Position numbers and translations under genes: made by a program. 45,322 nt of DNA, from the NCBI GenBank assembly GCA_046861645.1, contig JBHHUM010000011.1:1-45322 (forward strand), given 5' to 3'. This DNA is from Fidelibacterota bacterium. GTDB lineage: Bacteria; Fidelibacterota; Marinisomatia; Marinisomatales; UBA2128. The notes below the pieces were generated by a model, which was given only the letters and a program-made list of their open reading frames with translations, had not been told where the DNA came from and made no database searches. Each line of letters opens with the position of its first letter. Position 1 is the stretch's first letter. Positions 1-4,418 of the stretch are shown one piece after another.

Positions 1-1224
1 CATTTTTAATTCTGCCGGGATGGAGAGATAGTATCTAACGAATGTTTTGTCCAGGAACGGTGTGCGGGCCTCCAGTCCGTTGGAGCTGATACTGCGATCA
101 GAACGAAGAACGTCAAACAAATATAGTTCCTTCACCAGCCGTTCACTCTCCTTCTGCAGTGCATCCGGTGAGGTAGCATTCTTGAGATAGACATATCCAC
201 AGCAGACCTCATCACTGCCGTCACCGTTGAAAACCACCTTACAGTCGGAATTTTCTCTGATAAACCTGGAGACAAGATAGTTCCCCACACTGGCCCGAAC
301 GGTTGTTGTATCGTAGGATTCAATATTATAGATCACCGTTTTTATTGCTTCCAAAAAGTCCTCTTCAGACATCTCAATCTGATGATGGATTGTCCCCAAA
401 TGATCTGCTGCACTCTGAGCATATTCCAGGTCAATGCTGCCGGGAATTCCGATGGAAAAGGTTTTGAGCATATTTCCATTGTTGTGCTGGGCAACCAACG
501 CTGTAATCAGGCTGGAGTCCAGCCCACCGGATAAAAGACAACCAATTTCCCGTTCTGCCATCATCCTTTTTTCTACGGCATGAGATAATAATTCACAAAT
601 ACGATCGCAGATTTCATCCTCTGTCCCAATAGCGGTTTCATTATTACTGTAATGAAAATAACGATGGAAAAAATTCCGCTCACGGGAACTCCACCAGCAT
701 CCCGGCGGAAAAGGTTGTATTGAATCACAAATCCCAACCATGGGTTTGGCTTCAGAGGCAATAAAGATTTCCACTCCCTTTTTACCTATGAACCCGGGAC
801 GAACACCCATGGGGTCGCGGCCAACGTAAAAGGTTTTCGACGTATCATCATAGAGGACAAACATAAATACGCCGTCTAATTCTCTCACCGTCTGTTCAAT
901 ACCGAATTTCTTGTATAGAAAAAGAATTATTTCACAGTCAGAACCCGTCTCCAGGGTGAAACCGTATTTTTCAGCCAGTTCCAAATAATTGTAGATCTCA
1001 CCATTACAAATCAGTGTCAATGATGGATCTTGAGGATGCTGCATGGGCTGGTCTCCTGTTTCGGAAACTCCCATGATAGCGAGCCTATGAAACGTAAAAA
1101 TGGAGTTATTATTCAGTTCTATAATATGAGTGTTTTCCGGTCCTCTGTATTTGATTTTATACGCATGGTCTCTAAGCTCTTTCCACGACAGATTTCCTCC
1201 GAGATAGGCAAATATTCCGCACAT
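1..1224 (-). CDS. asnB: Asparagine synthase (glutamine-hydrolysing), 3' end beyond window edge
   Basis: Manual translation from ATG at 1224: MCGIFAYL (Ntn catalytic Cys2), HRLAIM, CNGEIYNY, RDPMGVRP, LLSGGLDSS, FNGDGSDE, DVLRSDR, EARTPFLD. SD-like AGAGGAG upstream. Absent from the ORF track, presumably because its stop lies outside the window. Confidence 0.96.
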   Translation of the reverse strand, partial: MCGIFAYLGGNLSWKELRDHAYKIKYRGPENTHIIELNNNSIFTFHRLAIMGVSETGDQPMQHPQDPSLTLICNGEIYNYLELAEKYGFTLETGSDCEIILFLYKKFGIEQTVRELDGVFMFVLYDDTSKTFYVGRDPMGVRPGFIGKKGVEIFIASEAKPMVGICDSIQPFPPGCWWSSRERNFFHRYFHYSNNETAIGTEDEICDRICELLSHAVEKRMMAEREIGCLLSGGLDSSLITALVAQHNNGNMLKTFSIGIPGSIDLEYAQSAADHLGTIHHQIEMSEEDFLEAIKTVIYNIESYDTTTVRASVGNYLVSRFIRENSDCKVVFNGDGSDEVCCGYVYLKNATSPDALQKESERLVKELYLFDVLRSDRSISSNGLEARTPFLDKTFVRYYLSIPAELKM

Positions 1225-1256
1225 TCTATTTTTGTCTCCTCTTCATGTTTACCCAT

Positions 1257-1294
1257 AAAAAAAGCCCCCATGACTTTCACCAGTGGGGGCTTTT
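1257..1294 (-). terminator. Intrinsic terminator (attenuator) upstream of asnB
   Basis: Minus-strand RNA AAAAGCCCCCA-C-UGGU-GAAA-GUCA-UGGGGGC-UUUUUUU: GC-rich stem, GAAA loop, 7-U tract, about 30 nt before the asnB start. Confidence 0.9.
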
Positions 1295-1332
1295 ATAATA
1301 GCTGTGTTATGGTTCTACACAGGTTCCCCCAC
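1283..1332 (-). promoter_or_regulatory. Antiterminator pairing of the asnB attenuator
   Basis: GUGGGGG (1332-1326, end of leader ORF) is perfectly complementary to CCCCCAC (1289-1283), the 5' arm of the terminator, so the two structures are mutually exclusive. Confidence 0.75.
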
Positions 1333-1404
1333 GCCCAAATTATCCGAAGGATCCTTTGGATTGGCATTATTATTGTTATTCAGGTTCTCTGTGTAGACTA
1401 TCAT
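1315..1404 (-). CDS. Asn-rich leader peptide (29 aa, MIVYTENLNNNNNANPKDPSDNLGVGEPV)
   Basis: ATG 1404 to TAG 1315; 8 Asn codons including 5 in tandem (AAT AAC AAT AAT AAT); directly upstream of a terminator and of asparagine synthase. Confidence 0.85.
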   Translation of the reverse strand: MIVYTENLNNNNNANPKDPSDNLGVGEPV

Positions 1405-1420
1405 TGATATTCCGGTACTA

Positions 1421-1448
1421 ATAATAAGTCATAATTGCACTGATGCAA
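1421..1448 (-). promoter_or_regulatory. Putative sigma70 promoter of leader-asnB
   Basis: TTGCAT-N16-TATTAT on the minus strand, 16 nt before the leader ATG; overlaps the palindrome TTGCA-N4-TGCAA (1435-1448). Confidence 0.45.
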
Positions 1449-1468
1449 AGTATAATTTCTAAACCCAA

Positions 1469-2914
1469 TTAGGCTACAGTCTTTACCGTAATATCGAGAA
1501 GAAATCCAGGTACAATCCCTAACAGGAGTACCACCGCAACCAGAAGTACAATTAGTCCCACAGTTAAAATACCGGCAACCGGACGGAAGACTTCTACTTC
1601 CTCTCGCATGTACATGTTCACTACCAACCGGAGATAGTAGTAGACTGACACAAGAGTGTTTAAGACAGCAATGATTACCAGCCAGATGTATCCTTTCGCC
1701 ACTACAGCGGAAAAGAGTCCATACTTGGCGGCAAACCCAGCCGTAGGCGGAAAACCTGCCAGCGAGATCATGAAGAGAGCCATAGCGGCTGAGAGCCATG
1801 GGTGCCGGGAGGCAAGTCCCCGATAGTCCTCAAATGCTACACCGTGTTCCTCCCTCTCTGCTACAGCAATGATGGCAAAGGCGCCCAGGTTCATGGCAGA
1901 ATAGACCACCAGATAGAAGAGTATGGCACCCCGACTGGCACTGTCCAACACCAGCACACCCATAGCCAGATAACCAGCATGGGAGATACTGGAGAAGGCG
2001 AGCATCCGCTTTACATTAGACTGCACCAGCGCAGAGATGTTACCAACAGTCATGGTCAGTGCGGCCAAGATCCAGAGTAGAATCTGCCATTCGCCATGAA
2101 CCTCAGGGAAAGCCGTTGTAAAGACCTTTAACAGGGCTCCGAAACCGGCCGCTTTGGGCGCCGTACAGAGAAATGCTGTCACCGTTGTGGGTGCTCCCTG
2201 ATATACATCCGGCGACCACATGTGGAACGGCGCCAGAGCTACCTTAAAGGCAAAACCGATGAGCAACAAGCCGATCCCGAGCGAGAGGAAAACATCTGAA
2301 AGAATAGTTCCGGAAGTGATAGCCGAGGCAATTCTATCAAAGTTCGTTGTCCCTGTAGCTCCGTAGGTCAAAGCCGCTCCAAAGAGGAAGAATCCGGTGG
2401 CGAAAGCGCCCAGCAGGAGGTACTTCAACCCGGACTCGTTGCTGTAGAGATTGTGCCGCAGGAAGCCCACCAGTACATAGAGTGACAGAGAAAGAAGTTC
2501 CAGTCCAAGGAAGACAATCACCAAATCGTTGGCCTGCGTCATGAGCATCATCCCGATAACGGCGAAAAGTATGAGAGCCGGATATTCTCCCCGGGACTCA
2601 CTCTCCTTTTTCTCCAGGTATCCCTGAGATAGAATCAGCGTCGACAATCCCACAGCCAGATAGAGAAAGTCGAGGAAGATGGAAAAGCGGTTCAGCCGCA
2701 GCATCCCGCCAAATAGGACACGTTCTTCACCTCCAGTCTGTAACAGAGCGCCCCCAGCCAGAACGATACCAATTGCCGCTACGAGCAACATTATCCCTGG
2801 TCGACTCAGCTGGGCCATTTCCAGTGTCAAAACCAGGAGGGCAGTTACTACCAGAATTATCACTGGGGCGCTACCTGCCAGGTCTACAGAGGTGAAATAT
2901 TGACTTAGATCCAT
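1469..2914 (-). CDS. nuoN: NADH-quinone oxidoreductase subunit N (cluster 2)
   Basis: ESGLKYLLLGAFA, FKVALAPFHMWSPDVYQGAP, KRMLAFSSISHAGY, AGFPPTAGF motifs. Confidence 0.96.
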   Translation of the reverse strand: MDLSQYFTSVDLAGSAPVIILVVTALLVLTLEMAQLSRPGIMLLVAAIGIVLAGGALLQTGGEERVLFGGMLRLNRFSIFLDFLYLAVGLSTLILSQGYLEKKESESRGEYPALILFAVIGMMLMTQANDLVIVFLGLELLSLSLYVLVGFLRHNLYSNESGLKYLLLGAFATGFFLFGAALTYGATGTTNFDRIASAITSGTILSDVFLSLGIGLLLIGFAFKVALAPFHMWSPDVYQGAPTTVTAFLCTAPKAAGFGALLKVFTTAFPEVHGEWQILLWILAALTMTVGNISALVQSNVKRMLAFSSISHAGYLAMGVLVLDSASRGAILFYLVVYSAMNLGAFAIIAVAEREEHGVAFEDYRGLASRHPWLSAAMALFMISLAGFPPTAGFAAKYGLFSAVVAKGYIWLVIIAVLNTLVSVYYYLRLVVNMYMREEVEVFRPVAGILTVGLIVLLVAVVLLLGIVPGFLLDITVKTVA

Positions 2915-2918
2915 AATC

Positions 2919-4418
2919 TCAAGTGAAGAAAAGCAATGAAACTACAACAAAAATGGGAATCAGAATGGGAATCGAGTACCTTATCATGTAACCAAAAAAG
3001 CTAGGCATTTTAACGCCGCTCTGTTCGGCGATAGATTTTACCATGAAGTTGGGAGCGTTCCCGATATAAGTGTTGGCTCCCATGAACACCGCTCCCGTAG
3101 AGATTGCCAGCAACGTGTTATGGTGAGTAGTCATCAATTCCAGGGCATTACCACCAGCAGTGTTAAAGAATACCAGATAGGTCGGGGCATTATCAAGAAA
3201 GCTGGATAGAATTCCTGTAGCCCAGAAGTACATATAGTTGATGGGATTGCCACCAGATGAAACCGATTGGATGACGCTTTTCAAGACACCCTGTTCACCA
3301 GCCCGCAGGATGGCAATGGCCGGAATGATGGTAATAAATATTCCCGCAAACAACTTCGCCACTTCCTGTATGGGAAACCAGGAAAAATCGTTCTCCTCCC
3401 GAACCCTTCGTGGTGTCACCTTCCAGCTTACCAGAGCCAACAGTAACAGTAACAGATCCCGAACTACATTTTGCAATTCCATGTGTAATTCGAAGGCGTG
3501 ACCGTTCTGCACAAAGTGATAAAGAGGAATCAATGCACCAGGCCGCCAAAAACCGCTTAGCAACACTGCACCAATAACGCCAACTAAAAGAAAAAAATTA
3601 AATGACCCCTCCAGACCTAACTTTTTCTCATCACGAGGGACCTCTGCATCAGGTAACACCTCCTTCTTAAAGTAATAGGAATCCAAGGTGTAGAAAATGA
3701 TAAGTAACAGGGTGACAACGAATATCATAGGAATGAACATGGCACTGGTGGTCCAGAAAAAATCCACTCCTTTCAGAAAACCTAGAAAGAGGGGCGGATC
3801 GCCCAAGGGCGTCAGTGAGCCACCGATATTGGCCACTAAAAAAATAAAAAACACGATGACGTGAACTTTATGTTTCCGTTGCATATTAGCTCTCAGCAGC
3901 GGTCGGACGATCAACATGGCAGCTCCAGTAGTACCCATCCAACTGGCGAGGATAGTACCTACCAGGATAAGTCCGGTATTCAGGATAGGAGTTCCTACCA
4001 GGGTTCCGATCAGACGGATCCCTCCTGAAATGGTAAAAAGTGCTAGCAGCAATATGATAAACGGGAAATATTCCAAAAACATCGCATGGAAAAGTTCATA
4101 GGTGACAACCTGAAGATTAAACTCGAATATCATGGGAATTAGTAACACCAGGGCCCAGAAAGCCGATACCTTTCCAAAGTTATGATGCCAGAATTGTGGT
4201 GCAATCAAAGGGAAAATGGCTATGGAGAAGAGAATCCCCGCAAAGGGAAAAGCCCATGGTAATCCTAACTCATCACCCGGTAGAGGGGAATGGTGCACAT
4301 CAGAACTCTCCACGAGGGTCTCTTGCTGAAGAATCTGATTATCATGAAGAGTATCTCCCCCCCAACTGAGTGCGGGAATTGTGCAAAAAATCAGCAGCAG
4401 TAGAATCGGCTTTTTCAC
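2919..4418 (-). CDS. Ion-transporter superfamily membrane protein (putative sodium:proton antiporter, CitMHS_2/DUF1646-like)
   Basis: Polytopic; GTTGAAML, VANIGGSLTPLGDPPLFLGFLKGV, SSFLDNAPTY, GANTYIGNAPNFMV motifs; GTG start overlaps the nuoM stop; N-terminal signal-like segment. Confidence 0.85.
   Translation of the reverse strand: MKKPILLLLIFCTIPALSWGGDTLHDNQILQQETLVESSDVHHSPLPGDELGLPWAFPFAGILFSIAIFPLIAPQFWHHNFGKVSAFWALVLLIPMIFEFNLQVVTYELFHAMFLEYFPFIILLLALFTISGGIRLIGTLVGTPILNTGLILVGTILASWMGTTGAAMLIVRPLLRANMQRKHKVHVIVFFIFLVANIGGSLTPLGDPPLFLGFLKGVDFFWTTSAMFIPMIFVVTLLLIIFYTLDSYYFKKEVLPDAEVPRDEKKLGLEGSFNFFLLVGVIGAVLLSGFWRPGALIPLYHFVQNGHAFELHMELQNVVRDLLLLLLALVSWKVTPRRVREENDFSWFPIQEVAKLFAGIFITIIPAIAILRAGEQGVLKSVIQSVSSGGNPINYMYFWATGILSSFLDNAPTYLVFFNTAGGNALELMTTHHNTLLAISTGAVFMGANTYIGNAPNFMVKSIAEQSGVKMPSFFGYMIRYSIPILIPIFVVVSLLFFT

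Follow-up and report, generated by a model that had tools for sequence, protein, structure and literature searches.

In E. coli the asn genes are controlled by the proteins AsnC and Nac, and in Firmicutes by tRNA-binding T-boxes; both serve the same regulatory goal as the element described here, but through protein or tRNA-binding sensors. In layout, the closest described systems are the classical leaders trpL, hisL, pheL, thrL, leuL and ilvL, which share product-cognate codons in a short ORF, mutually exclusive 1:2, 2:3 and 3:4 helices, and a terminator before the structural gene, and the definition of ribosome-mediated attenuation in PMC1183508 matches the layout of our element. Unlike these classical leaders, the asnB leader uses Asn control codons, carries the antiterminator strand inside the ORF, and has its ORF almost at the RNA 5′ end. 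Outside enterobacteria, comparative genomics has likewise produced candidates for amino-acid-specific uORF attenuators, namely uORFC-8-2 (Cys codons before cysS) and the ilvB-II uORF (PMC8632094, PMC11109978), which concern other amino acids and other genes; the terms "asn" and "asparagine" are absent from the main texts of both papers. The nearest prior trace is Table S8 of Naville and Gautheret 2010 (PMC2965389), which lists unannotated premature terminators 62–65 nt before asnB in five Xanthomonas genomes, with "-" as attenuator annotation; neither a leader peptide nor Asn sensing is given there, and the main text makes no mention of the terminator. Searched by term, the main texts of PMC8632094, PMC11109978, PMC6429828, PMC4833913, PMC2965389, PMC3771888 and PMC5009743 contain no Asn attenuator. 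A full-text literature search also returned none, in line with the preliminary description of this DNA, which knew of no characterised example; most subscription journals and some supplements lie outside the reach of that search, and an earlier prediction is possible. Vitreschak 2004 and Lopatovskaya 2010 are said to be comparative surveys that could contain an Asn-attenuator prediction. The mechanism considered below is textbook, and its Asn specificity is apparently undescribed.

The locus lies in a contig of 45,322 nt (JBHHUM010000011.1, assembly GCA_046861645.1), analysed as a whole and called the window here, from a genome of the Marinisomatota (Marinimicrobia), an abundant and mostly uncultured marine phylum, in which it is placed through named records that share its leader and its enzyme. 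The whole element is held in the interval between the nuoN stop codon (1469) and the asnB ATG (1224), on the minus strand. Its features, all on the minus strand, are as follows.

1..1224, minus: asnB, glutamine-dependent asparagine synthetase; ATG at 1224; runs off the contig
1236..1241, minus: Shine-Dalgarno sequence GAGGAG of asnB, assigned from sequence; lies outside the hairpins
1257..1294, minus: intrinsic terminator (3:4) with 7 U; 96% paired, compensatory change in 4 of 10 pairs
1283..1289, minus: segment 3, C tract CCCCCAC, common to antiterminator and terminator
1302..1322, minus: inner antiterminator helix CTGTGT/ACACAG over the stop codon; 78% paired, compensatory change in 3 of 5 pairs
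1314..1332, minus: segment 2, G tract GTGGGGG (1332-1326) and CTGTGTAGA (1322-1314); partner of segment 1 or of the antiterminator
1404-1315, minus: leader ORF asnL, 29 aa, MIVYTENLNNNNNANPKDPSDNLGVGEPV*, 8 Asn codons
1331..1367, minus: inner hairpin ATGC/GCGT (ACGCC/GGCGT in relatives); 95% paired, compensatory change in 2 of 5 pairs; lengthened here by the insertion
1342..1359, minus: in-frame insertion of 18 nt (PKDPSD), private to the window's genome; forms its own small hairpin
1360..1386, minus: control codons 7–15 of the leader ORF, 7 of 9 being Asn
1382..1397, minus: segment 1, 5′ arm of the long protector, TCTACACAG (1397-1389) and CCT (1384-1382), from the MFE fold and RNAalifold; 89–93% of cells paired
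1421..1449, minus: σ70-like promoter TTTGCA-17-TATTAT, 9/12 match; predicted start at about 1414
1469..2914, minus: nuoN, upstream neighbour, outside the element

The identity of asnB is supported by a score of 334.7 bits against TIGR01536 (glutamine-dependent asparagine synthase; cut-off 267.1). Its C-terminus was found on contig C157, and contigs C5 and C157 overlap inside asnB. Farther upstream, a CitMHS_2 (PF16980) membrane transporter of 499 aa (window positions 2919-4418, minus strand) sits between nuoM and nuoN of the complex I operon.

The Asn run is exceptional in its genome. Among 31,096 short ATG ORFs, it is in the most Asn-dense ORF and the sole one with 7 Asn in 10 codons; in shuffled versions of the intergenic region, 7 Asn were reached in 1 of 20,000. 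Furthermore, among 77 genome-wide candidates with a short ORF, a terminator and a gene in succession, the asnB leader has the densest Asn cluster. Transcription would start at the σ70-like promoter just upstream, so that the 5′ UTR, counted from the predicted start, would be only about 10 nt long. A promoter scoring at least 8/12 precedes 18 of 27 leaders collected from the phylum, in 14 of those 5 or 10 nt before the uORF ATG. In the window's genome the distance is 16 nt, because the first ATG of the sister genome is ATA here; the remaining second, in-frame ATG is preceded by a weak GGA only. A palindrome, TTGCA-TCAG-TGCAA (1435-1448, minus strand), covers the −35 box; it is absent from the sister genome and may be an operator or chance.

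The preliminary description had noted the 29-aa ORF with its 8 Asn codons, a terminator 20 nt behind it and about 30 nt before asnB, and an antiterminator formed by GUGGGGG, and these are borne out by our analysis. Specifically, 7 of the Asn residues fall within codons 7–15; the terminator stem (fold −18.7 kcal/mol) begins at 1294, 20 nt past the stop codon, with the U-run reaching 1257, 32 nt upstream of the asnB ATG; GUGGGGG (1332-1326) pairs with CCCCCAC (1289-1283) in an antiterminator fold of −17.2 kcal/mol, to which the inner helix over the stop codon, missed earlier, is now added. A consensus terminator scanner did not detect the terminator at 1294-1257 (0 found in the scan), probably because its loop limit is 8 nt. 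The protector hairpin described earlier fared less well: it exists, but its overlap with the G tract is just 2 nt (1332-1331), and folds contain it together with the antiterminator. Its two inner stems derive from the private insertion (1359-1342), which is absent from the other 22 aligned leaders, and were rejected as the conserved protector. The conserved protector is a longer helix, in which codons 3–8 pair with the G tract and the stop-codon region, enclosing the Asn run and the inner ACGCC/GGCGT hairpin; this inner hairpin is a candidate polymerase pause hairpin.

The helices carry compensatory changes. In an alignment of 12 of the 23 leaders, chosen as the best-aligning subgroup and excluding the window's copy, the RNAalifold consensus contains the long protector and the terminator. 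Protector and terminator together are 93.5% paired with 8 compensatory pairs (40–58% in slid controls), and the antiterminator reaches 84% pairing (40–54% in slid controls) with 4 compensatory pairs, of which the inner helix contributes 3, among rows that are kin and were picked for best alignment, so that the shuffle counts for covariation overstate significance and are not probabilities.

We conclude, with a probability of about 0.88, that the element is a ribosome-mediated transcription attenuator sensing the supply of Asn-tRNA(Asn). It combines an ORF with many codons for the amino acid that the downstream enzyme makes, a terminator between ORF and gene, and direct charging of the tRNA; in silico, with an assumed footprint size, the antiterminator and terminator are mutually exclusive, the antiterminator being free on stalling and covered when the ribosome is at the stop codon. 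In the mechanism that we infer, a ribosome would begin translating the leader ORF close to the 5′ end of the nascent transcript. With ample asparagine, it would cross the Asn codons and reach the stop codon, and its footprint there would shield the G tract, which lies 9–15 nt before the stop; the C tract would then join the terminator and transcription would stop 32 nt before asnB. With scarce asparagine, the ribosome would stall on codons 7–15 and mask segment 1, leaving the G tract free to form the antiterminator (G tract with C tract, plus the inner helix) before the terminator 3′ arm is made, and polymerase would read through into asnB. If the ORF is not translated, the G tract would be sequestered in the long 1:2 helix, which would tip the balance towards termination. 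On this reading of the sequence, asnB is most likely on only when asparagine runs short. Translational attenuation was rejected on the position of the asnB Shine-Dalgarno sequence, outside the helices.

Ribosome-masked folding is consistent with this geometry. We removed everything 5′ of the assumed ribosome edge (12 nt past the A site) and cut the transcript before the terminator 3′ arm. The mean probability that the terminator 5′ arm is captured upstream is 0.86 with the ribosome in the middle of the Asn run and 0.08 with the ribosome at the stop codon, and capture is higher in the stalled state in 23/23 Marinisomatota, 9/9 Nonlabens-type and 27/27 further leaders, a contrast that is partly built in by the masking and shows geometry, not function. 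Only 13 of the 23 Marinisomatota leaders beat shuffled controls at 2/40 or better, since the C tract also finds partners in G-rich shuffles. For 10 flavobacterial leaders of another type, capture is no better than in shuffles (0.42 vs 0.42), the script having taken the wrong terminator in three. The three computational tests proposed in the preliminary description, namely a poly-Asn uORF in orthologues (27/33, see below), covarying stems and masked folding, support its reading of an Asn-codon leader with antiterminator-dependent read-through.

The ribosome-free equilibrium speaks against this mechanism. The antiterminator is favoured here (−33.7 vs −30.0 kcal/mol), and its ribosome-free probability averages 0.65 in the 23 Marinisomatota leaders; stalling adds more than 0.2 over the ribosome-free state in only 7 of the 23. 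In most leaders the antiterminator outcompetes the protector at equilibrium, which implies that the protector must act as a kinetic trap or is weak; its last nucleotide, 1314, is transcribed ahead of the C tract. These energetics bear on whether the family is a true attenuator of which the window's copy is degenerate or leaky. The copy has lost its first start codon, carries the 18-nt insertion and has a ribosome-free antiterminator probability of 0.84, compared with 0.00 in the sister genome, and the genome has a second synthetase gene, asnA, with no such leader. Against this, the insertion preserves the frame and pairs with itself, every helix is still perfect, the second in-frame ATG is kept, and a covariance model built without the copy gives it 85 bits (E 1e-13), so we regard degeneration as very unlikely.

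We then turn to conservation. Our phylum sample comprises 251 Marinisomatota genomes, of which 33 carry the window-type asnB at E <= 1e-100, all in one order, that of the window. All 33 upstream regions were read, and the leader is present in 27, the window's own genome included: each of these has a G tract, a terminator and an ORF that holds 5–9 Asn in 10 codons and stops 76–96 nt before asnB. The remaining 6 asnB orthologues have no leader; with four of the leader-less rows included in the tree, three separate changes are needed. Over 151 genomes of the phylum, covariance model R1 recovered 10 asnB leaders and two weak matches (one different leader, one plain terminator). In 27/27 leaders, an ATG and a stop codon share the reading frame of the Asn run, at five different run-to-stop spacings. 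In no leader (0/27) does an ATG ORF cover the run in any other frame, and we therefore rejected the possibility that the repeat is read as Ile/Thr codons. At L014/L174 (G018), several stop codons break asnB, and the leader is absent.

These data bear on the reading in which the hairpin is merely the terminator of the nuo operon and the Asn run a chance AAT repeat. Such a reading has some appeal, since nuoN ends just 65 nt before the leader ORF, the consensus terminator scanner found no other terminator between them, and AAT repeats readily expand in AT-rich DNA. Yet the upstream genes differ among relatives, some being divergent, and the leader is kept beside them, indicating that it belongs to asnB and not to the upstream gene. 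The Asn runs also mix AAT and AAC (161 and 67 codons in the 27 leaders), stay in frame, and survive in 70% GC genomes; at the 62–72% GC of the Xanthomonadales loci described below, AAT and AAC go against composition (25/29 loci). We therefore consider a chance origin of the run highly improbable and retain the Asn-sensing attenuator, while the hairpin may also end nuo transcripts in the window's genome.

For an attenuator of this kind, the route by which Asn-tRNA is charged defines the signal. In the window's genome (94% complete), asnS scores above the cut-off and gatB has no match; gatB matched in 0/36 further genomes, and asnS matched in 32/32 relatives, 31 of them above the cut-off. As gatB was not found, Asn-tRNA is not made via Asp-tRNA, and one tRNA-Asn(GUU) decodes both AAT and AAC; together with the presence of asnS, this means that the run is decoded at a speed set by free asparagine. 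We rejected the idea that leader loss goes with a change of tRNA route, since each of the six genomes without a leader has asnS and gatB was found in none of them.

The charging route also weighs on the proposal that the element senses general translation or nitrogen stress, for example glutamine or aspartate supply or nascent-peptide stalling, and not Asn-tRNA as such. AsnB uses glutamine, so asparagine drops when nitrogen is short, and the C-terminal residues of the leader peptides are partly conserved within lineages (GVG..V, GGEAL, RARPMR). However, these residues are fixed by the RNA helices that they encode and differ among lineages, the Asn run being the shared feature, and with gatB not found there is no Asn-tRNA route via Asp-tRNA. 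General stress sensing thus appears unlikely, though less so than a chance run or a degenerate copy, and Asn-tRNA remains the preferred signal.

No Asn leader was found upstream of asnA, either in the window's genome or at the 30 examined of the phylum sample's 70 asnA loci, where two Asn-rich candidates sit inside upstream genes, and none before asnS, at the own gene or at 5 others. One AsnC/Lrp-family gene lies on another contig. No Rfam family, the leader families (Trp, His, Phe, Thr, Leu) included, reaches its gathering threshold on the window's leader, the best scores being 22.3 for Phe_leader RF01859 (gathering 55), 17.7 for His_leader RF00514 (49) and 15.6 for Thr_leader RF00506 (55), and there is no Rfam T-box match. 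Three leader peptides matched 0 Pfam/NCBIfam families.

Leaders of this kind are present in at least four phyla. GTDB genomes scanned for a pattern of Asn codons, a U-run and an MCGI start yielded at least 120 loci, in sets that are pattern-selected and overlap the phylum sample. Among the first 80 listed matches, 78 loci were parsed, and an Asn-rich ORF stands before 42/52 asnB-like genes, 2/9 glmS, 0/2 purF and 2/15 others; among the other 40 of the matches listed, 26 are asnB with the leader. These loci add the marine Flavobacteriaceae Nonlabens, Gilvibacter, Aequorivita, Ulvibacter and Luteirhabdus, as well as Weeksellaceae, one Bacteroidales, one Gemmatimonadaceae record and one gammaproteobacterium. 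A metagenome pattern scan proved too loose, 112 of 119 matches not being asnB, with the leader in 5 of the 7 that were. In even samples the spread is patchy: of 30 asnB loci from Bacteroidota, only the seed is clear, one more having an Asn-rich ORF but no terminator; the phylum of the Gemmatimonadaceae record gave 2 clear and 2 weak cases in 11; and the leader is present in 2 of 4 in the Gammaproteobacteria sample. At L186 and L189 (two Bacteroidota), a long perfect palindrome (about −17.7 kcal/mol) lies before asnB, with no Asn leader, and is a possible protein-binding site.

The two gammaproteobacterial carriers belong to a family with asnB in 49 of 61 genomes. Among the best 30 of those loci, one is at a contig edge and 25 of the 29 others, at 62–72% GC, have at least 4 Asn in 10 codons; a script found terminators in 22 of these 25, with U-runs 35–122 nt before the asnB start. 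The AsnB of these gammaproteobacterial loci bears the Xanthomonadales signature presented in Fig. S28 of PMC3568101. The terminators of Table S8 (PMC2965389) are probably those of the Xanthomonadales form of the element. In 25/25 Xanthomonadales leaders the ORF ATG lies 6–7 nt after a −10-like box, which suggests that these ORFs are translated leaderless; only 3 of the 25 promoters score 8/12 on the E. coli consensus.

In marine flavobacteria, Gemmatimonadota and Xanthomonadales, the leaders have the same Asn run but different helices, and precede a distant asnB clade. Marinisomatota AsnB is 35–41% identical to other AsnBs and separated from them by a long, well-supported branch, and a repeated origin of Asn attenuation is likely, although long branches meet in that tree. 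Marinisomatota AsnB scores 316 bits against human asparagine synthetase and 264 against E. coli AsnB; the window's subfamily, confined to one order in our sample, is nearer to the human enzyme and to clusters rich in giant-virus sequences than to E. coli AsnB. We tentatively suggest, at somewhat less than even odds, that Asn attenuation constitutes a widespread class, so far undescribed and of more than one origin, on two AsnB clades of that divergence and with at least four unrelated RNA architectures, the ORF often being leaderless or nearly so. If so, these bacteria would gain a ribosome-based gauge of asparagine and, via the glutamine-dependent enzyme, of nitrogen status.

An Asn attenuator would place asparagine among the few amino acids that are sensed through leader peptides, and would show attenuation at work in Marinisomatota, marine flavobacteria and Xanthomonadales. 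It would also account for a terminator unannotated since 2010 and supply annotation pipelines with a missing small ORF and RNA family. The leader could serve as a compact genetic asparagine sensor, testable in harmless cultured hosts, and its recurrence with different helices would make it a good model for how attenuators arise.

Three further leaders were observed before other genes, the first two in the window's own genome, where their like build counts in favour of the attenuator reading of the Asn leader. On the minus strand of contig C159, a Met/Thr-rich leader, MRMKSEMSTITMPSTGMTMNLVGTMTMTIGAGGSM*, is built like the Asn leader, with a G tract, a C tract and a terminator; the gene after it, which by sequence likeness we take to be asd (aspartate-semialdehyde dehydrogenase), makes it a candidate Met/Thr attenuator. 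On the plus strand of the same contig, near 3066, the leader MKQTDNRIFSYYWYFTKEGLVQRP* precedes a trpE-like gene and has an aromatic cluster (F, YYWYF) and a terminator, as a putative attenuator responding to aromatic amino acids. At L231 (G073), on the minus strand, a Met/Cys-rich leader (…CVDMGIMMCLMCMYS…) with an early YNNQNN and a terminator lies before a threonine-synthase-like PLP enzyme, and is a candidate sulfur-amino-acid attenuator.
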